DNA of 64,000 nt from Promethearchaeati archaeon (lineage in GTDB: Archaea; Asgardarchaeota; Heimdallarchaeia; Heimdallarchaeales; Heimdallarchaeaceae): positions 32,001-96,000 of the forward strand of contig JABLTJ010000002.1 of NCBI GenBank assembly GCA_013166775.1. The letters run 5' to 3'. Under the pieces are notes generated by a model, which saw only the letters and a program-made list of their open reading frames with translations, was not told where the DNA came from and made no database searches. Positions 43,857 to 54,430 of the stretch are shown here, piece by piece (positions within the stretch are counted from its first letter, which is position 1; each line of letters opens with the position of its first letter). A program made the position numbers and the translations under genes.

Positions 43857-45353
43857 TCAAGTATCTTCTGCCTTTTTCTCCCATACAGGACGTTCTTCCT
43901 TATCATAGGTTTCCATAACATCTGCAGTAATTTTTGAGAGATTCTTCTGAATATCTTCAGAGATTCTTGTTCTTCTTCCAGTATGTCCTCTAAATGGATC
44001 TGATATATGGAAGAATAGAATTGTCTTATATGCTGTTGAAATTGGTCGTAAAATAGCTGTTGTAGGTAGATATCCGAATAAGAAAAAGACAGCTGCTACT
44101 GCTAGAGAGAACATAACTTTAAAGCTTATACCAGCAATTTCCCCTGCACTAATGCCGAATAAATCTGCTAACCAATAATAACCTAAGAAGAATCCTCCTG
44201 TTGAAAAGACACCAAATGTCATCACTGTAAAAAATCCTTTAGCAATATTCACTCCAGCTTTTCCTATAATAATATCAGCAGCAGAATCAACTGCTAAATC
44301 GGTAGATCTAATCATACTTTTAACAAATCCTTGTTTTTCAACTACGATTATTGTCAAAGTATAGTAATTAAGGAATTTTAGTACCTTCCATAACGCTTTC
44401 AGAAGTAGAATGAATAGGAAGAAGATTACAGTAAGTACTTTTAATGTTATTTTCACTGCTTTATTCTGTTTCCATTTTCCCCAGAATTTCTTCTTTGCGA
44501 AATATTGTACAGTTTTTATAATAGCATCAAAGAATGCCATAAACGTTCCAAATAGGATGATACTTCCTTTTACTTTCCAGATTTCTTTCATTGCGATTCT
44601 TATTGAAGCATCTTTATAATTATTCCATCTCTTGAAGATGCAAATATTTATTGCATCACTGAAATAGAGCATTGTCCAATGTATTGTCAAGTAAATAAAG
44701 ATTATAACGAAAAATACCAAGTATTCTAACCAATCAGATGTTCTACCAGATTGCTCTAACCAAGTATCTAAGTTTGCTCCTGCATAAATTGAACCAGCTA
44801 CTCCTGTTATTGTAGTTACTACAGAGATTACTGAAAAGAATAATACAGGTATCAATGTTCCTTTCTCTTCATTCACAGCTTCATTGCTCATCTCAAATAC
44901 TTTTGAACCAAGAATAATCCTTCTTGCTAGAAGTAGAACAATGACCAATATAAACGCAGCTGGTGCTAAAACTGCTATTCCTATCCATCTTAGATTTCCT
45001 TGATATTGAACAAGTAGAAAAACACCCGCAGCAATTAGTAAGGCTGTCCCTCCAAAAATAACTGTATTAACAAGTTCTGCACCTACATAGCTCATTAACC
45101 ATACTTCTAAATAAGCAATCAGAATTCCTATTACTAATAGAACTACAACTGCTAATATAACCCACCAAATGTAGCTTTCTACAAATGAGTAGGCTACACC
45201 AAATTTCGCAAGTACCCAATCTGTTAAGTTTTGGTTTATTGCAGTCATTTGATAAATAGAGTATGCACCGAATGCATAAGCAGCTAATACTATTAGAAAC
45301 CAAATATAGAAGATTAGACCGAAGTCTCTAACCTTTTGTTCTTCTGTAGCCAT
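43857..45353 (-). CDS. Choline transporter-like (CTL/SLC44/Pns1) family membrane protein
   Basis: About 10 TMs; GSIILFG and LKFLNYYTLTIIVVEKQGFVKS motifs resemble SLC44 GSi.fGs and N.yayi.iai.g..F..sa; likely start ATG 45353 after GGAGG. Confidence 0.65.
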   Translation of the reverse strand: MATEEQKVRDFGLIFYIWFLIVLAAYAFGAYSIYQMTAINQNLTDWVLAKFGVAYSFVESYIWWVILAVVVLLVIGILIAYLEVWLMSYVGAELVNTVIFGGTALLIAAGVFLLVQYQGNLRWIGIAVLAPAAFILVIVLLLARRIILGSKVFEMSNEAVNEEKGTLIPVLFFSVISVVTTITGVAGSIYAGANLDTWLEQSGRTSDWLEYLVFFVIIFIYLTIHWTMLYFSDAINICIFKRWNNYKDASIRIAMKEIWKVKGSIILFGTFMAFFDAIIKTVQYFAKKKFWGKWKQNKAVKITLKVLTVIFFLFILLLKALWKVLKFLNYYTLTIIVVEKQGFVKSMIRSTDLAVDSAADIIIGKAGVNIAKGFFTVMTFGVFSTGGFFLGYYWLADLFGISAGEIAGISFKVMFSLAVAAVFFLFGYLPTTAILRPISTAYKTILFFHISDPFRGHTGRRTRISEDIQKNLSKITADVMETYDKEERPVWEKKAEDT

Positions 45354-45444
45354 GTCTATTATTCTGCTCTCCTCCTTCAAAAATGTTTTCCAATATTATC
45401 TCATGTGGAAGGATTTTAAAGCTGCAATAATAATATTATGTCTT

Positions 45445-46353
45445 GTGAAAGCTGATCTAAATATAATTAGTCACATAGTTCTAGATGACAAAATTTTCTA
45501 TACAGAACATCCTCCTAGAAAAATAACGGAACAATTGGGAGGTCCAGTAGCTTATGCAAGTATGGTAATCCCGCTATTACAGGCAAGCACTCAATGTATT
45601 ACTTCAATTGGAAAAGATTTTCCTGAGGAATATCTGCTTTACCTAAATTCAATTAGAAACTATGGTCTTAAGATAGAGAATTCGGAAAAAACAACTAGAT
45701 TCTTACATGAAATACATCATGATCATCGAACCTTATTTCTAGTAGCACAAGCTAAATCTTTGGATAATTCTTTATTCTTGCTTGAAGGAGGAAAAGCATG
45801 CTTACTTTCTCCAGTTTTTGAGGAAATCTCAAAATCTTCAGTTGAATGGTCACGAGATAATCATGATTGGGTGGGAGTTGATGTACAAGGATTTGTTAGA
45901 AAAAAGGATGAAAATGGCAAGATTTATTCTTATTTCGACCAGAGTTTTTTCAGATACTTAATACAAAAAAACGACTTTGTTAAGTATTCTTTGAACGAAG
46001 CAATGAGTTTTACAAAACAGAAAGCTCACAGAGAGATATTAGATAAATTACCTAAGAATAATGTTCAAATCGTTACTATAGGAAATAAAGGAATCATTTA
46101 CTCTGATAATGGACAGTTCTATAAACTAGATGCACCTACACAAGATATCAAAGATCCTACAGGAGCAGGAGATGTTTTTATTACTGCTTTTCTTATAAAA
46201 TATCTTGAAACAAAAGAAGTTGATTTCTCACTTTCTTTTGGAATGGCTATAGCTGCTGAAAAAGTACATTACGATGAAATACAAATTTTACCCAAGAAGA
46301 ATTATAAATCGATAGCAGAAAAGATTCTCGAATCAAAGAAAGAGATAAGATAA
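45445..46353 (+). CDS. PfkB-family carbohydrate kinase
   Basis: GGPVAY, VDVQGFVR, DPTGAGDVF; probable GTG start 45445. Confidence 0.9.
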   Translation: MKADLNIISHIVLDDKIFYTEHPPRKITEQLGGPVAYASMVIPLLQASTQCITSIGKDFPEEYLLYLNSIRNYGLKIENSEKTTRFLHEIHHDHRTLFLVAQAKSLDNSLFLLEGGKACLLSPVFEEISKSSVEWSRDNHDWVGVDVQGFVRKKDENGKIYSYFDQSFFRYLIQKNDFVKYSLNEAMSFTKQKAHREILDKLPKNNVQIVTIGNKGIIYSDNGQFYKLDAPTQDIKDPTGAGDVFITAFLIKYLETKEVDFSLSFGMAIAAEKVHYDEIQILPKKNYKSIAEKILESKKEIR

Positions 46354-47475: not shown

Positions 47476-47547
47476 CATTTTTTCTGGGAAATTGAATTAT
47501 CAAATAGTGCATAAATAAAATAGAAAAGAGAAGAAATAATCTTTTTT

Positions 47548-48318
47548 TTAAACTGGTGATATTTCAATATTTAGAACGTCAAGAATTCTTGTCATTTCTT
47601 TAACATCTTCGATTGTTTTTATTCTTAAAGCACTTCTAAACATTGTTGAATTTAATTCAGAGGCAGTTTTGAAAATGTCACGTTTTCTCCAGACATCAAC
47701 TGAGGGATTGTAAAGAAGAATGTACATCACTTTTTTGTCCATATCACAGAGAAGATAAGTGTCTGCATATTCCAATCTTTTTCCTATCATTTCTTTTAAT
47801 GTATTATCTTGGTTCACACCATAAATTCTGGGTATTTTACCTGAAAACATGTCTATCATTCTTGTATACATTTTCTTGATTGAACTTGGATCGATTCCAG
47901 ATTCTCTCTGCAAACCTCTAGCTATCAATGTGAAATATGGTTCTATTAATCCATAACTATCTAGAACTTCTCTTACTGCTATTCCTTCAAATAGGAAATA
48001 AGCTACGCACAATCTATAACCAGAAGCAGCAATTCTTTCATCTGCTGAACTTGTAATTTCTGTTTCAAAAGGTATTGCAATAGCTTTGATATTTTCATGA
48101 TCAGGAACAGGTATTGGACCTAACATTTTTGGATTTTTGGTTCCATCAACTTTTCCGATTGATCCTTTGTTCATCTCAACTAGTGTCATTCCACTCATTA
48201 CTAAAGTTAAGGCTGTATTTTCTTCTACTTCTGAATTGTTAAATAATATCTCGGGACCGTAGTCCTTGAATATACTGAATATCAATTTTGGTTCTTTTGA
48301 AACATTTGGATTTATCAT
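47548..48318 (-). CDS. uDENN/longin-like domain fused to a gelsolin-like domain (putative)
   Basis: N-terminal LIFSIFKDYGPEI...LGPIPVP...DERI; C-terminal DTYLLCD..KKVMYI....SVDVWRKRDIFKTASEL. Confidence 0.5.
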   Translation of the reverse strand: MINPNVSKEPKLIFSIFKDYGPEILFNNSEVEENTALTLVMSGMTLVEMNKGSIGKVDGTKNPKMLGPIPVPDHENIKAIAIPFETEITSSADERIAASGYRLCVAYFLFEGIAVREVLDSYGLIEPYFTLIARGLQRESGIDPSSIKKMYTRMIDMFSGKIPRIYGVNQDNTLKEMIGKRLEYADTYLLCDMDKKVMYILLYNPSVDVWRKRDIFKTASELNSTMFRSALRIKTIEDVKEMTRILDVLNIEISPV

Positions 48319-48329
48319 TTTGGCACTCC

Positions 48330-49325
48330 TTATTGTGTATCTTCTCTACTTGGTTGTTGATCTAATAGAATTGCTATTTCAGGAATCTTGCTGAGAATTT
48401 CGTATTTGACTTGTCGAGGCATTTCCTTTGAAGGATCGCGTTCTTTTTCCTCAACAAAAGCATTTAGAATCTCTTCTGCGAGAGATTGTGCTTTGGATTC
48501 ACTATCATCTCGATCAACAAATAGAACTATACTCCATCCTCCCATCTTGCGGATAACCATCTTTACAACACCAAGTTTCACTACATCCATTACAGAATCA
48601 CTTTCAAAGATGGTTGAAGCCATGATATTAAGCGCACTAATCAACCCCCCAAGTAGAGTACTATCATGTTCTTCGACTGTTTGATCAAATGTATAATCAA
48701 ACGCTGGGACTCCTCCTTCTTGAAGTATTATGACCCTCTTTGGATTAACTTCTTCCCTTAGAGGTGTTCTTCCTGTCATTCTGGAGATTATCCAATCAAA
48801 AGCTGTGTAGAAATTTTCTCCAGTTTTTACACTGACTGGATAAATTGAAACAGAACGATTGATATCTTCCATAATTACTTGAAAAGCTGGATCTTGTAAC
48901 AAATCTGCAAAAGGAACAGCTTCAGCTATATCTGTTTTATTTGCCAAGAAAAGAATAGAAGTTTTTTGTGGTATCTTATCTAGTAAACTAAAAATATACT
49001 CAAAAGATACATCTACGTGTCTAGATGTTTGAGTATCTATAACAAAAACCACTCCATCTATTTCACCTAATATATCTTGGAAATAAGGACTTTCTCTTGC
49101 TGTTTCTTCATCTGCTTCAATAATTGTAAGAATGGACTTACCATAAGTTACATTTATAAAACAAGTTAGTTGTGTTGGTTGCGCGTCTGAAACAGTACCA
49201 TATATCAAACGATTTACAACACTTGATTTACCTGATTTCTCTAATCCTAATATAACTATCTGTGGTTTCTTTCCTTCTTTATTTAGTAGAAGTTTATCCC
49301 TAACGAAAGAAAGATAACTACTCAT
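48330..49325 (-). CDS. Arf-like GTPase with degenerate G3 and C-terminal longin-like domain
   Basis: G1 GLEKSGKS, G4 NKTD, G5 SVKTGEN; G3 replaced by EADEE; C-terminal ILQEGGVP...LLGGLISALN. Confidence 0.82.
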   Translation of the reverse strand: MSSYLSFVRDKLLLNKEGKKPQIVILGLEKSGKSSVVNRLIYGTVSDAQPTQLTCFINVTYGKSILTIIEADEETARESPYFQDILGEIDGVVFVIDTQTSRHVDVSFEYIFSLLDKIPQKTSILFLANKTDIAEAVPFADLLQDPAFQVIMEDINRSVSIYPVSVKTGENFYTAFDWIISRMTGRTPLREEVNPKRVIILQEGGVPAFDYTFDQTVEEHDSTLLGGLISALNIMASTIFESDSVMDVVKLGVVKMVIRKMGGWSIVLFVDRDDSESKAQSLAEEILNAFVEEKERDPSKEMPRQVKYEILSKIPEIAILLDQQPSREDTQ

Positions 49326-50329
49326 TATCTGCGTCCTCCTTCAACCTCAAGTGGAAACTTACTCTCTAATACTTCACTCAGATTCTTTTGAGCTTCTGTA
49401 GGATTTCGACTGAAATTCTCTAGAATTCTTAATTGAATCTGTTGTGCTCTAGTTACTGGATCAATTGGGTCTATCATAACAGATAAACAGTAAGCTCCAC
49501 GTTTAACATGACTAACATGTTTTTTATAGAGGCTTTCTAGTTTTACAGATTGAATACTTTCTTTTGACTCTATAGCAAAGAGTTTGGTTAATTCCTTGAG
49601 TTTCTTAAAATCATTTGCAACGAGAGCTTGCTCACTTGGTCTACCAAATAAAGCTTCAGAGATAATGTTTCCATCAATATCACTTAAAACTGCTGCACCA
49701 ATCTTGACTTTCCATTGCTGAGCGCCACAAAGCACATCTACAATCCAATCCCATGCGCTATAAACTCCTTGTCCAGTTAAAGCAGACACTTTTTTAATGT
49801 TGAATGGTCTTAAATTTCTGAGAAATTTATCTAATTCAAATGATTCATTAATTTCCGATAATTCCTTTGAATTAGGTAGGTCTCCCTTGTTTGCTAAGAA
49901 TAGTACTGGAGCACTTTGTTTTGCGAAATTTATATAATGCCAGAATGTTTGTTTTGATTCATCAAATCGAGCGTGATCAGCTGAATCTACTAAATAGATT
50001 ACTGCATCAGCTCTCTCAATAAATTTTTTCCATAAACTTAATCTAAATGGTTGATGTCCTCCTAAATCAAAACAAGTAAAATTTAAATCACGATATTGAT
50101 AATTTTCTAAATTGACCCCATAAGTAGGTCTTACAACTATATCATCTTGTTTTAGTAGTTTTTTAACCAAAGATGTTTTTCCTGCTCTTTCTAACCCTAG
50201 CAGAGCAACACTAAATTTATTCCTTCCTACAACTGATTCTTGGCTAGTTTCTACCTTCGTTGGTTGTTCTTGTTGCTCTCTTCTCTTCTTTTCTTCCATT
50301 ATACGTTTTCGAAATTCATAGAAAGACAT
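49325..50329 (-). CDS. Arf/Sar1-like small GTPase with C-terminal longin/roadblock-like domain
   Basis: G1 GLERAGKT, G2 PTYG, G3 FDLGGH, G4 NKGD, G5 SALTG; C-terminal VLSDIDGNII. Confidence 0.9.
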   Translation of the reverse strand: MSFYEFRKRIMEEKKRREQQEQPTKVETSQESVVGRNKFSVALLGLERAGKTSLVKKLLKQDDIVVRPTYGVNLENYQYRDLNFTCFDLGGHQPFRLSLWKKFIERADAVIYLVDSADHARFDESKQTFWHYINFAKQSAPVLFLANKGDLPNSKELSEINESFELDKFLRNLRPFNIKKVSALTGQGVYSAWDWIVDVLCGAQQWKVKIGAAVLSDIDGNIISEALFGRPSEQALVANDFKKLKELTKLFAIESKESIQSVKLESLYKKHVSHVKRGAYCLSVMIDPIDPVTRAQQIQLRILENFSRNPTEAQKNLSEVLESKFPLEVEGGRR

Positions 50330-50510
50330 TCATTCACCTTAATTATCTGCAAGAGTGAGTTTTTTTCTCAGATACCTAATCAGAATTTAGTATCTTAACA
50401 TAGTAATTTAATGTTTCGCTAACTGTAATTTAGTCTAGATAACTAGAACGATTCACGCTTCATTCCATTCTATTTAAACATTAAGATAGTAAAAGCTACG
50501 CTTTCTAATC

Positions 50511-51332
50511 CTAACCTATCCATCTCAAGAAAAAGAACAGTATTGTGATAATTCCAAGTAACAAACACACAATAGCAAAATTATATTTTCTAGCTATAAG
50601 TAGAAAGAGTTCCATTGTCAAATAACCTACAATTGCTGTAATGATAATAGCAATTAATAATTGCCACCACACAAGAGGAAAAACATTACCTCCTTCTATC
50701 ATGATGACAATAAGATTTAGAAAAAAACCTCCCAAAACAGCAGGAATGCTCATGATAAAGCTCCCCTTAATGCTATCTTCTTTTTCCACTGACATGAACA
50801 ATAATCCGCTCATTGTTATACCAGATCTGCTAATACCAGGAATTATGGAAAAACCTTGTAACAGTCCACTGATAGTCATCTCTTTCTTAGAAGTATTCTC
50901 TATCAGTTTTCCTTCTCTATCTTGTCTTTTAGCGTAGTATAGAAGAGCAGCTGTAATTAACAAGGATATTCCAATGATGAGCATAAAATATTCTCCAATT
51001 TGAGAATTGGAACCTAGATGTCGTACCAAGAAATAACAAGGCACACCTGTGATTATTGTGCCTAGAGTACTTAAGAGAATAAACCATCTCCATTTTCTTA
51101 TTGTTTCTTCTTTAACTTGTGGATTAATGTATTGATATATTTCTTTTCGAAACTTTACTACTACAGCAATTAATGTTCCTAAATGCAGCCATAAAGATAT
51201 TTCTAGAGCTTCTTCAGGAGTAATTCCTAGAAAACCTGTTAATAGAGTTATAGTTTGCCCTTCTGAACTTACTGGTAACCATTCCAGAACTCCTTGAAGA
51301 AACGCAAAAGCAATAATAATCCATAGAAGCAT
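50511..51332 (-). CDS. uppP: Undecaprenyl-diphosphate phosphatase (BacA/UppP family)
   Basis: QGVLEWLPVSSEG, HLGTL, PGISRSG.T, SFIMSIPA. Confidence 0.92.
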   Translation of the reverse strand: MLLWIIIAFAFLQGVLEWLPVSSEGQTITLLTGFLGITPEEALEISLWLHLGTLIAVVVKFRKEIYQYINPQVKEETIRKWRWFILLSTLGTIITGVPCYFLVRHLGSNSQIGEYFMLIIGISLLITAALLYYAKRQDREGKLIENTSKKEMTISGLLQGFSIIPGISRSGITMSGLLFMSVEKEDSIKGSFIMSIPAVLGGFFLNLIVIMIEGGNVFPLVWWQLLIAIIITAIVGYLTMELFLLIARKYNFAIVCLLLGIITILFFFLRWIG

Positions 51333-51390
51333 CTGTTATTCCTTAAATTGACTATTGTATAAAAAATTATGTAAAAGAGCTTTAGTATTG

Positions 51391-51828
51391 CTATTCTTCA
51401 CTAATTCTCCGGCGAATGTAATTTTCTAGTTTTTCCCCAGCTGGAACTATTTCTATGTCTTCAATTAATTTGTTCTCAATATCACTACCTTCTATCAACA
51501 GAATCCAACCTTCTCCATAGGCATCAGTGTTGATTAAATCAGGTGTTTTTCTTAGTTGATCATTTTTCTCTATAATTATACCAGCAATAGGAGCTCGAAT
51601 TTGTCCAACCCATTTTCCACTTTCATAGGTCCCAATTATCTGGTTTTTTTTCACTCTCTGTCCCTCTTTCATCGTTCGAACAAATTCAATTTTTCCTGCT
51701 CTTTTTGAAGCATAATCGTCTATCCCCAACTGAATGATACTTTCAGATTTTCTTCTAATCCATACATGACCTGGATCTCTTAGAATGTAAAACAAATCAT
51801 CTGGGAAATCGTATTGTTCAATTTTCAT
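51391..51828 (-). CDS. Glycine cleavage H-like lipoyl-carrier protein (LbpA-type motif)
   Basis: HVW, LGIDDYA, ESGKWVGQIRAPIAG, LIN.DAYGEGWI. Confidence 0.88.
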   Translation of the reverse strand: MKIEQYDFPDDLFYILRDPGHVWIRRKSESIIQLGIDDYASKRAGKIEFVRTMKEGQRVKKNQIIGTYESGKWVGQIRAPIAGIIIEKNDQLRKTPDLINTDAYGEGWILLIEGSDIENKLIEDIEIVPAGEKLENYIRRRISEE

Positions 51829-53237
51829 AACATAAACCTACTTGCTAATTTTAACGCTGTTTTTAAACTAATTACTGGGAACAATTTAAATCTTGGTGGG
51901 ATTACTTTCCCAGGATTACTTATTCCTTTTGGGTCAACTATCTTTTTGAATTCTTTATACTTCTTGTATCGTTCTTTTCCAAAAATAGCTTGATAATATC
52001 CTGAAAACCATAGTCCAGTAGTGTATGGATATCCTTTAACTTTTATCCCTTTGAGTACGTTTTTATACAAATCCAGATTGACTCGAAGCTTCTTAAATGG
52101 ACCTAGTTTTTCTTCGAAATATAGAAACATTAGAAGCGAATAATGAGTTTTACCAATCATTTCTCCCTCAAGATGAATTTGTCCATCAATCTTTGAAGAT
52201 AATTTCTGCAGATATTTGCTACTTGTTTCTATGGGAAGAATTATTTCATTAGTAAGGTAATCCTTATACTCTTTTAACATTGCAAACGTCTTAAAACGAA
52301 TATTCCATATATTGATAATGTATCTCCTGTCTAAAATTTGCCCTCCTGCATTTCTTACTGTTTGGTTGAAGCTGAGATTAAATTCGTTTTCTTCTTCTTC
52401 ATAGCTAATTTCTTTTGAAACAATAATAACATATCTTTCAGGAAGCGAATATCCAAAAGACTGGTTAATCTCTTCAACATGTTTTGGATTAAAGAACCAT
52501 ATAGAATAAGGATCGATTTCGGAAATTTCTTTCAATCCCTTAGCTAATTGTAGTGGTGAATCAAAGGTGCATCCGAACTGTTTTAGAGGAATATCAAATT
52601 TAATTTTTAATTGTATTCTTGTAATTAATCCCAAAGTTCCATTTGAACCAACAAAAAGTTCTAAATCCTCTTTTTCAGTGATCTTCTTTATTTCTCCTGT
52701 TGGTAATACCACATCCAAAGCTAAAATTTGATCTAAAGCTCCTCCATATTTAGCACTACCCACACCATAACCACCATGAGCAATCCAACCGCCAATTGTA
52801 GCAGAATGAAAGCTTGAAGGATATGAGCAAAGAGAGAATCCTTGGAGATTTAGCTTTCTTTGCAGCTCTGAAATCACTGTTGCAGGACTAACTAAAACGG
52901 ATTGATCAAAGGGTTCAATCAACAGCTCACTTTCTAAACCTTTAACGTCGACAATTATACCCCTTTTGTAGGTGACACATCCACCAAAACCTGCTGTTCC
53001 ACCACTTCTTGGAGTGACAGGTACCTTATTTTCCGTCGCAAGCTCGTAGAGCTTTTTCACTTCTTCAGTAGTAGATGGAAGTACTACTGCATCAGCTGTA
53101 TTATTGTAGAATAGCCTTGTGATTGGTGGTAAATCTGCTAAATCTCTAGAATAAATTCGAATAGTCGTTTCATCATCTCTAAAACCTTTTCCTAAGTGTC
53201 GCACGAATTTAGTACGAACTTTATTTTTCAAGGTCAT
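51825..53237 (-). CDS. FAD-binding oxidoreductase (GlcD/Dld family)
   Basis: PVTPRSGGT, ATIGGWIA, GSNGTLGLIT, VDPKGISNPGK. Confidence 0.9.
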   Translation of the reverse strand: MTLKNKVRTKFVRHLGKGFRDDETTIRIYSRDLADLPPITRLFYNNTADAVVLPSTTEEVKKLYELATENKVPVTPRSGGTAGFGGCVTYKRGIIVDVKGLESELLIEPFDQSVLVSPATVISELQRKLNLQGFSLCSYPSSFHSATIGGWIAHGGYGVGSAKYGGALDQILALDVVLPTGEIKKITEKEDLELFVGSNGTLGLITRIQLKIKFDIPLKQFGCTFDSPLQLAKGLKEISEIDPYSIWFFNPKHVEEINQSFGYSLPERYVIIVSKEISYEEEENEFNLSFNQTVRNAGGQILDRRYIINIWNIRFKTFAMLKEYKDYLTNEIILPIETSSKYLQKLSSKIDGQIHLEGEMIGKTHYSLLMFLYFEEKLGPFKKLRVNLDLYKNVLKGIKVKGYPYTTGLWFSGYYQAIFGKERYKKYKEFKKIVDPKGISNPGKVIPPRFKLFPVISLKTALKLASRFML

Positions 53238-54430
53238 TTTTTACCCTCCACCATTCGACTGACCAATTCAGCTATATCAATTACTTCAACATCCATTTCT
53301 CTTTGTTTAATTCCTTGTTGAATAGTATCTAAACAAGTTGGACACCCATTAACAACAATGTTAGCTTCTGAATATTGAATTTCAGATATTAGGTGGGAAT
53401 TGACTTGTCCAACTAATTCTTCATCATTTAGTTTTAGTAAACCACCTCCTCCACAACAAAGTGATTCTTCCCTATTAGATGGTAGTTCTTCATATCTGAC
53501 ATTAGGAATGTTTTTGATTACTTCCCTTGGAGCATCACTTAATCCACAATGTCTCACTAGTTCACATGGATCTTTGAATGTTATTTTTTCTTTAATTGGA
53601 TTAATTACTTTCAGTTTCTTTTCTTCGAAAAGTTCATTTGCTAATTCAGAAATATGAACTACTTCGATATCCCACTCTTCACCCAAGACTCTGGGGTAAA
53701 CTATTTTGAAAGCTCTATAACATCCTGCACAAGCTGTAACTACTTTCTTAACACCAAGTTTCTTGAATTGATCTAAGTTATGTTTTGCGAAAGTCTTCCC
53801 AACGGAAAAACCACCAGCTAAGAAAATTGGAGAACCACAACACCTTTCTTCAGTTCCTAAGATAGTGAAGTTTAATTTTGCTTTTCTAAGAATCTTAACA
53901 ACGCTTTCTGCTATACTTCCCATTTTACCAGAATATGAGGCTTGACATCCCACGAAATACGCTAAAGGTGCTTTCTTTTGCGTTCGTCTAGACATATTCA
54001 TACCACTTAATGCTGCCCAAGAAACTCTTTCTTCAGTAGGTAGCCCAAAAATATTAAAGAAATCTTTTACTCTGTTATAGAGAGATAAGAGTTTGGGATT
54101 CCATCTTCCTCTTTTGAATGCTTCTTGTCTTATCTGTTCCCAAACTTTCAACAAAGGAAGATCAACAATACAGATGTCTTCACAAGCACGACATGCAGTA
54201 CAAAGGAATACGCTTTCAAATAGCTGTTTAGAGACGTCGTTTCTCAACTTGTCCTTTATTTCTTCTGAATAATATAGTTTAATCTGATCCAAAATCCCTC
54301 TTGGATGATTAACCTCCCATTTAAGTTCCTTATAGGTCGGACATAATGAACAATAACCACAATATACACATTTTTGTGCTACATCCAATACATCTACTTG
54401 CCAACCTTGTAGAGAACTCATCTGCAACAA
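53234..54430 (-). CDS. Fe-S oxidoreductase with CCG domains (GlcF/HdrD-like)
   Basis: CVYCGYC..CP, CTACRACEDIC, ERCCG, ACAGC, DPCEL, CCGGGG, GCPTC. Confidence 0.92.
   Translation of the reverse strand: MLQMSSLQGWQVDVLDVAQKCVYCGYCSLCPTYKELKWEVNHPRGILDQIKLYYSEEIKDKLRNDVSKQLFESVFLCTACRACEDICIVDLPLLKVWEQIRQEAFKRGRWNPKLLSLYNRVKDFFNIFGLPTEERVSWAALSGMNMSRRTQKKAPLAYFVGCQASYSGKMGSIAESVVKILRKAKLNFTILGTEERCCGSPIFLAGGFSVGKTFAKHNLDQFKKLGVKKVVTACAGCYRAFKIVYPRVLGEEWDIEVVHISELANELFEEKKLKVINPIKEKITFKDPCELVRHCGLSDAPREVIKNIPNVRYEELPSNREESLCCGGGGLLKLNDEELVGQVNSHLISEIQYSEANIVVNGCPTCLDTIQQGIKQREMDVEVIDIAELVSRMVEGKK

Follow-up and report, generated by a model that had tools for sequence, protein, structure and literature searches.

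A heimdallarchaeal operon encoding an Arf-family GTPase, its degenerate paralogue and a longin–gelsolin-like protein, with features of a dimeric GTPase switch and a candidate cognate regulator

We analysed a stretch of 64,000 nucleotides (nt) from a Promethearchaeati archaeon of the family Heimdallarchaeaceae (GenBank assembly GCA_013166775.1, contig JABLTJ010000002.1, positions 32,001 to 96,000 of the forward strand), hereafter called the window, and describe here an operon of three genes at window positions 47548-50329. The first gene encodes an Arf-family GTPase that ends in a predicted longin domain (G1), the second a paralogue of G1 that is predicted to be a pseudo-GTPase (G2), and the third a protein (X) whose model combines a longin with a gelsolin-like domain. 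From sequence, structural models and analogy, we lean towards a reading in which G1 and G2 form a dimeric GTPase switch and X is its cognate longin-type GTPase-activating protein (GAP) or regulator.

According to this reading, the active switch would be G1, in which an Arf-family GTPase domain, with His at the catalytic position, is fused to a longin. G2 would probably still bind guanine nucleotide but be incapable of canonical GTP sensing or hydrolysis, and would most likely pair with G1 through the C-terminal longins of both proteins, as Rag GTPases do through their roadblock domains. The cognate regulator would be X, whose longin is most likely a GAP that would insert R95, a residue beside its GP motif, into the active site of G1, by analogy to the action of SMCR8 Arg147 on Arf1 and of FLCN and NPRL2 on the Rags. 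Its gelsolin-like domain would clamp the GTPase or link the switch to another partner, for example actin. From the evidence set out below we infer that G1 and G2 heterodimerise, that X has GAP activity, which of its residues is the arginine finger and that G2 binds nucleotide.

Three coupled genes on the minus strand

The operon consists of three open reading frames (ORFs), all on the minus strand, as are all of its features given below, and it lies in an AT-rich window (~33% GC); the closest homologues carry Heimdallarchaeaceae names. G1 (P0001; 49325..50329) has 334 amino acids (aa), G2 (P0002; 48330..49325) 331 aa and X (P0003; 47548..48318) 256 aa. A Shine-Dalgarno-like AAGGTGA (50334..50340) can be read 4 nt 5' of the G1 start codon. 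At the junction between G1 and G2 (agaTAATGag), which has a GGAGG 5' of it, the A at 49325 is common to the stop codon of G1 and the start codon of G2, and the TAA of G2 is followed by 11 nt (ggagtgccaaa, containing GGAG) and then by the ATG of X. The original prediction, made from this DNA alone, held that the TAATG overlap at 49325 and the 11-nt gap with its GGAG join the three genes, and the sequence bears it out with correct coordinates. A T-rich tract 3' of the X stop codon (47505..47547) may be an archaeal terminator; we read no such tract between G1, G2 and X, but only 3' of the last gene.

G1, an Arf-family GTPase with a predicted longin tail

Residues 36-198 of G1 match the Pfam family Arf (PF00025) with E = 8e-39 and 133.3 bits (cut-off 22.3). 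The next-best Pfam model, SRPRB, reaches 37.9 bits, and Roc, Gtr1_RagA and Ras also lie far below Arf; with a Gtr1_RagA score of 25.7 bits (cut-off 22), far under the Arf score, the G domain is not of the Rag/Gtr type. The GTPase domain (residues 38-200; 49730..50218) carries GLERAGKT, T69, DLGGH with its His at position 92, NKGD and SALTG. Among 19 orthologues, which are 68-98% identical, the P-loop, T69, D88-L-G-G-H92, N147-K-x-D150 and S182-A183 are invariant, in agreement with the earlier claim that motifs G1 to G5 are intact and include DLGGH. Operon orthologues from a second family of the class keep DLGGH, whereas stand-alone paralogues from that family have DLGGQ, so that the His, judging from the sequences, is a mark of the operon copy.

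The best PDB matches of G1 are Arf, Arl3, Arf1 and the Asgard ArfR entries 8OUK-8OUN. No Sar1 chain was found among the 60 best PDB matches (E<=2e-22), all of which are Arf, Arl or ArfR. The description of G1 as Sar1-like consequently stands for the Sar1-type His, H92, but probably not for the whole protein, which by sequence appears Arf/ArfR-like overall. The N-terminus, where the original prediction saw an amphipathic-looking helix in both GTPases, a feature that Arf-family proteins use to bind membranes, has invariant S2, F3, E5, F6 and R7, followed by a variable charged linker of ~25 aa before the G domain, and the hydrophobic (Eisenberg) moments of the N-termini are modest (0.47 for G1 and 0.31 for G2).

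The C-terminal domain of G1 (residues 205-334; 49328..49717) is predicted to fold as beta-beta-alpha-beta-beta-beta-alpha-alpha. Modelled alone with AlphaFold2 (AF2), residues 186-334 gave a predicted local distance difference test (pLDDT) of 83 and a predicted template modelling score (pTM) of 0.76, and structural comparison with VIA placed the VAMP7 longin first (Z 12.6 over 111 aa, root-mean-square deviation (rmsd) 2.5), followed by Sec22 (11.7), Ykt6 (10.6) and AP sigma/mu (~10). Lower ranks were taken by MglC (Z 9.2), SRX (6frk_y, 8.5), LAMTOR (8.2), MglB (8.0) and the C-terminal domains of the LokiRag proteins (7.6-7.7; LokiRagO 7.7), and Foldseek returned Ego3, MglB and LAMTOR, which share the superfold, at E ~1e-4. 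On this model, the tail is a longin/roadblock superfold with longin topology. A sequence profile of the tail compared with PDB sequences yielded chance matches only.

G2, a degenerate paralogue

G2 is 22% identical to G1 over 299 aa, tail included (BLASTP, E = 4e-18), and is likewise assigned to Pfam Arf (E = 5e-18, 65.5 bits), with SRPRB next at 31 bits. Its Gtr1_RagA score of 21.0 bits, under the cut-off of 22, again places the G domain outside the Rag/Gtr type. The GTPase-like domain (residues 19-185; 48771..49271) keeps the P-loop (GLEKSGKS), NKTD and the G5 motif SVKTG, and has E70-A-D-E73-E74 in place of DxxGQ. In an alignment of 17 orthologues G27-L-x-x-x-G32-K33-S34, N129-K130-x-D132 and S165...G169 are retained, E70, E73 and E74 are invariant where DxxGQ would stand, and the switch-I Thr position (51) is variable; a catalytic Gln or His is absent from G2. 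The claim that G2 keeps the motifs G1, G4 and G5 and lacks DxxG is therefore upheld by the alignment. Orthologues from the second family degenerate differently, with DLGQD or DIGNE. At the N-terminus, Y4, L5 and R9 are conserved. G2 evolves under strong purifying selection: the median ratio of non-synonymous to synonymous substitution rates (dN/dS) is 0.061 over 20 orthologue pairs, with 0.057 and 0.072 in the two least saturated pairs. Since these motifs are lost but the gene is not decaying (dN/dS ~0.06), pseudo-GTPase seems a fair label, and because the P-loop, G4 and G5 are retained, G2 would be expected to bind nucleotide.

The C-terminal domain of G2 (residues ~195-320; 48366..48743) has no direct Pfam match, and its profile compared with PDB sequences gave chance matches only. 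Its domain family, which occurs throughout the class, is more informative: out of 25 members, 8 match Pfam Fuz_longin_1 (best E = 2.3e-5) and 3 match Intu_longin_1, and the family profile matches longin domain 1 of MON1 (8c7g_C, E = 0.0059) and Bet5. We therefore regard the G2 tail as a probable MON1/Fuz-type longin, less certain than that of G1. The expectation that both GTPases end in longin-type tails is thus supported for G1 by model and fold search and for G2 at the level of the domain family only. Language-model look-alikes of both tails scored 0.80-0.88 and serve as leads only.

As a separate observation, three proteins of 620-725 aa with tetratricopeptide repeats (TPR) encoded in the same genome (L049:2523-4385, L050:1000-3177 and L051:2553-4568) end in a longin of the G2-tail type, and one of them has a weak Fuz_longin_1 match (E = 0.003).

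The longin domain of X

X has no match at E<=1 in Pfam or NCBIfam and belongs to a rare family: when 1.84 billion representatives were searched exhaustively with a profile, 97 relatives came up at E<=1e-3, and the named ones are all Asgard. An AF2 model built from an alignment of 29 homologues (pLDDT 84, pTM 0.74) shows two domains. The first (residues 8-160; 47839..48297) is assigned from its fold matches to the folliculin/NPRL2/SMCR8 class of longins. With residues 4-165, VIA matched a Loki roadblock-longin protein (8yqg_B, Z 11.8), Lst4 (11.2), FLCN (6nzd_H, 10.8), C9orf72-SMCR8 (10.0), FNIP2 (9.2) and Nprl2 (9.2). Matches in the ESM Atlas comprise a heimdallarchaeal 'Folliculin' cluster (template modelling (TM) score 0.52), NPR2 and C9orf72, with TM scores ranging from 0.47 to 0.54. 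By the fold of the model, the X longin is closest to the GAP longins of the FLCN/NPRL2/SMCR8 class.

The alignment of 88 family members adds two features to this resemblance. X begins with FSIFKDYGP, and in the model its first two strands span residues 11-18 and 21-27, so the GP motif (G21-P22; 48253..48258; present in 86 of the 88 members) stands at the start of strand beta2. PMC12290439 reports that a GP motif which opens the second strand, beside the arginine finger, is specific to the GAP-active longins FLCN, NPRL2, SMCR8 and C9orf72 and to a class of heimdallarchaeal longins, and that the longins of TRAPP, adaptin and DENND lack it. As G21-P22 begins the second strand in just the manner that PMC12290439 defines, the motif of X fits the signature of GAP longins. 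The other near-universal positions are D19, N27, G67-P68-x-P70, D93-x-R95 and G100-x-R102. D93 is found in 87/88 and R95 in 84/88 members, including those with a longin only, and R95 (48034..48036), in the beta4-beta5 loop, is our candidate arginine finger; longin topology suggests that this loop adjoins the beta1-beta2 hairpin with the GP motif. In SMCR8, the longin supplies the finger for Arf1, Arg147 (PMC8213707). The original prediction had also read a uDENN/longin start in X. FSIFKDYGP is present, and the model has a longin fold; a C-terminal DENN domain is absent, residues 161-256 being gelsolin-like on the model.

A longin of this kind could also serve as an exchange or docking platform for G1-G2, with X in the role of guanine-nucleotide exchange factor (GEF) or scaffold in the manner of MON1-CCZ1, TRAPP, the DENN proteins or Ragulator. 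Longin and roadblock platforms are typically GEFs (PMC3747258), the X model also matches the longins of TRAPP, MON1-CCZ1, BLOC-3 and CPLANE (VIA, Z 6-8), and the G2 tail is MON1/Fuz-like. We consider such a role unlikely, if worth keeping in view, given that the top matches of X (Lst4, FLCN, SMCR8 and Nprl2, Z 9-11) are of the GAP class, that the GP motif is reported to be GAP-specific (PMC12290439) and that a near-invariant Arg stands in the neighbouring loop.

The three longins of the operon appear to be distinct subfamilies, because hhalign found little or nothing between them: the tails of G1 and G2 aligned with a probability of 47% over 42 columns, and neither matched the X-longin family.

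Further distant longins of the X type are encoded in the same genome (L085, L086, L087, L088 and L089, E 1e-9 to 1e-13). One of these, a protein of 597 aa (L089:7-1800), has hydrophobic segments at residues 6-24 and 405-423 and a C-terminal X-type longin with GPLPAP and SDPRLEG, and by its sequence looks like a receptor-type architecture.

The gelsolin-like domain of X

The second domain of X (residues 161-256; 47551..47838), in which W210-R211-K212-R213 opens a long helix, matched Thor ProGel (7c2f_D) in VIA with Z 10.1 (86/88 residues aligned, rmsd 2.6), followed by gelsolin (8.6), fragmin (8.5), the Heimdall and Loki 2DGel proteins (8.0) and the gelsolin-like domain of Sec23A (7.6). In total, ~15 domains of gelsolin, villin, fragmin, adseverin and Sec23/24 match at Z 6.5-8.6, and Foldseek returned 7c2f_B with a probability of 1.00. 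The gelsolin-like tail proposed for X is thus recovered on a confident model, in which both a longin and a gelsolin fold are found. Sequence identity to gelsolins in the VIA alignments is 9-26%, and the Pfam family Gelsolin does not match X at E<=1.

The nearest structures being the actin-binding Asgard gelsolins and eukaryotic gelsolin, villin and fragmin, X could be an effector that couples the switch to actin, its longin reading the state of G1-G2 and its gelsolin-like domain capping, severing or binding Asgard actin. The missing Pfam match and the low identity speak against it, as does the neighbourhood, in which no gene for actin or an actin regulator is kept beside the operon in the loci compared. 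We take this to be a rather improbable account of X; it is at the same time compatible with X being a GAP.

The resemblance to Sec23 raises the further idea, put forward by the original prediction, that the WRKR of the gelsolin-like domain supplies an arginine finger to the His-type active site of G1, which would make the module a proto-coat GAP. G1 has FDLGGH as in Sar1, the gelsolin-like domain of Sec23 holds a catalytic residue and is lacking in Asgard Sec23-like proteins (PMC11914678), the domains of Sec23A and Sec24 match X at Z 6.5-7.6, and a basic residue at or beside position 213 recurs in many two-domain members of the X family. However, conservation of W210 and R211 does not reach beyond close orthologues, while R95 is kept in 84/88 members with longin-only ones among them, and by its PDB matches G1 as a whole appears less close to Sar1 than to Arf, Arl and ArfR. 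VIA aligns residues 161-252 of the X model to Sec23A 619-723, and the finger of Sec23, R722 in yeast, would presumably fall at the C-terminal extreme of the domain rather than where the WRKR helix begins. A finger in WRKR is accordingly very improbable; because R95 is near-universal and by longin topology adjoins the GP motif and WRKR is less conserved, R95 is the likelier finger.

Conservation of the operon and a Rag-type sibling

Word-index searches for homologues of G1 and G2 reached Heimdallarchaeaceae only, and their wider distribution was obtained from genome searches. In Heimdallarchaeaceae, G1, G2 and X were all found in 30 of 31 species representatives; the remaining genome has X alone, at a contig start beside the break. 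The genes are adjacent and in the same order whenever they share a contig, the few exceptions being contig breaks, and the order holds in Ca. Heimdallarchaeum endolithica (L004) despite other flanking genes. In the second family (f7), all 12 genomes have, as far as contigs permit, the order G1-G2-X with gaps of 99-150 nt, followed by a Ras-family GTPase, and this family also has a separate, stand-alone paralogue of X. The G1-type tail is confined to these two families.

A paralogue of X is also present in 22/22 genomes of a third family (f5), in which we examined five loci (L078, L079, L080, L081 and L083). There, a same-strand cluster (L079:3275-6980) encodes a Gtr1/RagA-type GTPase (334 aa; Gtr1_RagA, 122 bits), a degenerate Rag-like protein, the X paralogue (273 aa) and another GTPase of the Gtr1/RagA type (309 aa, 117 bits), with overlaps or gaps of 14-17 nt between the genes. 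The degenerate protein (~308 aa; Gtr1_RagA, 27 bits), whose gene has a TTG start after AGGAG, retains a P-loop (GLSHSGKD), lacks DxxG and has NRGH for NKxD. A further family (f32, L082) shows a related, shorter arrangement of X followed by a Rag-like gene. In one Asgard metagenome-assembled genome (MAG), one ORF of 597 aa (P0143; MFX1533204.1, L077:5001-6794) joins an X paralogue to the Rag-type GTPase downstream, with an X-like longin plus gelsolin-like part at residues 7-262, a Gtr1/RagA-type GTPase at 286-473 and then a C-terminal domain. Across two paralogous systems, each with a disabled copy, the X family is thus linked to dimer-type GTPases. Conservation of the gene order, on which the original prediction had staked itself, therefore holds in two families and is joined by a Rag-type parallel and a natural gene fusion.

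That the genes are mere neighbours encoding three independent proteins is very unlikely, even with X homologues standing alone in several lineages, in view of the stop/start overlap and 11-nt gap, an order kept in 43 genomes of two families (one with other flanks), the paralogous Rag-type operon, the fusion and three controls of the complex prediction at 0.00.

Some further observations concern these loci. The Ras-family GTPase 3' of the operon in the second family (L038:7011-7538 and L039:7013-7534) is encoded on the same strand and has 173-175 aa (Pfam Ras, E = 5e-33). Family f3 has, behind its stand-alone X homologue, a gene for a ~200-aa protein (L030:5051-5644 and L031:4738-5340) that matches the G2-tail profile at its N-terminus (E ~3e-5); from its sequence, this protein could be a longin partner in its own right. 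Immediately upstream of the Ca. Heimdallarchaeum endolithica operon, two divergent genes (L004:2075-3567) encode a weakly Arf/Ras-like protein of 255 aa and a protein of 235 aa.

Predicted complex and points against a cognate GAP

We predicted the complex of G1, G2 and X with two GTP, with X as the scored partner and three controls. The trimer scored 0.48 (0.52, 0.48 and 0.44 in single runs) against 0.00 for the best of the three controls. The pass mark was reached by 58/80 solved complexes and 2/110 mismatched pairs, and those passing at 0.60 or under comprised 7 of the 80 solved complexes and both passing mismatches; the run used custom alignments and accompanying GTP, unlike this calibration, and the score is silent on which residues touch. 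The runs share at least 33% of contacts, with a partner pLDDT of at least 76. When an unrelated protein took the place of G1 the score was 0.00. Binding that depends on G1 is modestly favoured, and the interaction proposed for the three proteins obtains a weak pass. Overall, the interpretation of the original prediction, a self-contained heterodimeric switch with its own GEF or GAP and a possible tie to actin or a proto-coat, is supported in part.

Several points weigh against a G1-G2 switch with X as its cognate GAP. The complex score lies in the weak band and came with no interface, and all folds of the G1 tail and of X are predictions. The equivalence of R95 to FLCN R164, NPRL2 R78 or SMCR8 R147 is drawn from motif and topology, not from residue-level superposition, and the profile of the X-longin family compared with PDB sequences recovered no FLCN, NPRL2 or SMCR8 chain. 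Eukaryotic longin GAPs have DENN domains and act as longin heterodimers; the operon encodes an X with no DENN domain and no obvious second longin subunit. Among longin platforms, GEF activity is commoner than GAP activity. Finally, many X homologues in families f3, f4, f6 and f33, as well as one f7 paralogue, occur alone, away from any GTPase gene.

Relation to known systems

Fusions of GTPases to roadblock or longin domains are known in Asgard archaea, and one operonic pair, from Prometheoarchaeum MK-D1, is predicted to heterodimerise (Tran et al. 2024, PMC10933270). That Rag-like pair and the proteins LokiRagO and LokiRagM (8yl2, 9m28) resemble G1 and G2 in having a GTPase with a C-terminal longin/roadblock-type domain and two such genes per operon, and the MK-D1 pair is predicted to form a tail-mediated heterodimer like Gtr1/Gtr2. 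Unlike the MK-D1 pair, G1 and G2 are Arf-type (133/65 bits for Arf versus 25.7/21 bits for Gtr1_RagA), have predicted longin and not roadblock tails, include one predicted pseudo-GTPase and come with a third, longin-gelsolin gene. SR-beta with the SRX domain of SR-alpha and MglA-MglB also combine an Arf- or Ras-like GTPase with a longin/roadblock platform, but there the platform is a separate protein, whereas in G1 and G2, an active/inactive pair, it is present twice and fused in cis.

X shares with FLCN-FNIP (acting on RagC/D), NPRL2-NPRL3 of GATOR1 (RagA/B) and C9orf72-SMCR8 (Arf1) the modelled longin fold (Z 9-11), the GP motif and a conserved Arg that is predicted to lie nearby, and the GTPases linked to X, Arf-type in the first two families and Rag-type in the third, are the same two client classes as those of the eukaryotic longin GAPs. 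It differs from FLCN, NPRL2 and SMCR8 in the gelsolin-like domain that follows the longin in place of DENN, in showing no sequence-level match to them, and in a GAP activity that is predicted only. With Sec23-Sar1 the module has in common a His-type (DLGGH) Arf-family GTPase and a protein with a gelsolin-like domain; X is without the trunk, barrel, zinc-finger and helical domains of Sec23, its likely finger is in the longin, and G1 as a whole does not appear specifically Sar1-like. The Asgard gelsolins ProGel, 1DGel and 2DGel (7c2f, 7c2g, 7whf, 7whg) are the best structural matches of residues 161-256 (Z 10.1 to 8.0), but they are stand-alone actin regulators, while the domain of X is fused to a GAP-class longin, encoded with GTPases and known from a model only.

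The papers on ArfR and AArf set aside Arf-related proteins with extra domains, and gelsolin domains are present in other Asgard proteins and absent from the Asgard Sec23-like ones (PMC11914678). The partners of heimdallarchaeal GP-motif longins were left open in PMC12290439, which asked about ArfR or Rag GTPases. In the literature searched we found no description of the longin-gelsolin architecture, its Arf- and Rag-type operons, the recurrent pseudo-GTPase member or the fusion. The operons and the one gene fusion speak to the question of PMC12290439, pairing longins of the GP-motif class with GTPases that are Arf-type in two families and Rag-type in a third, and the locus ties a gelsolin-like domain genetically to an Arf-family GTPase with a Sar1-type His. 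Both the partners of GP longins and the gelsolin-like domain, two open questions of this literature, hence become testable at the bench, and with only three soluble proteins of 256-334 aa to handle, the small module should lend itself readily to assays of binding, GAP activity and actin. We also raise, as a speculative and doubtful extension, that this module and its Rag-type sibling are an archaeal prototype of longin-GAP systems, in which the gelsolin-like domain would couple GTPase switching directly to Asgard actin or be the free-standing source of the gelsolin-like GAP element missing from Asgard Sec23-like proteins; if true, a GAP-class longin joined to a gelsolin-like domain would prefigure both Rag-FLCN/GATOR1 and Arf-C9orf72-SMCR8.

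Neighbouring genes

Upstream of the operon, window positions 50511-54430 hold a BacA/UppP-like membrane protein and a cluster with overlapping genes for a GcvH-like protein, an FAD-binding oxidase and a CCG/Fer4 protein; synteny of this region extends to the loci L006 and L007 and not to L004. At 43857-46353, a membrane protein of 507 aa is encoded head to head with a PfkB-type kinase, and the L006 and L007 orthologues of this membrane protein match Choline_transpo (PF04515), a Pfam family found mainly in eukaryotes.

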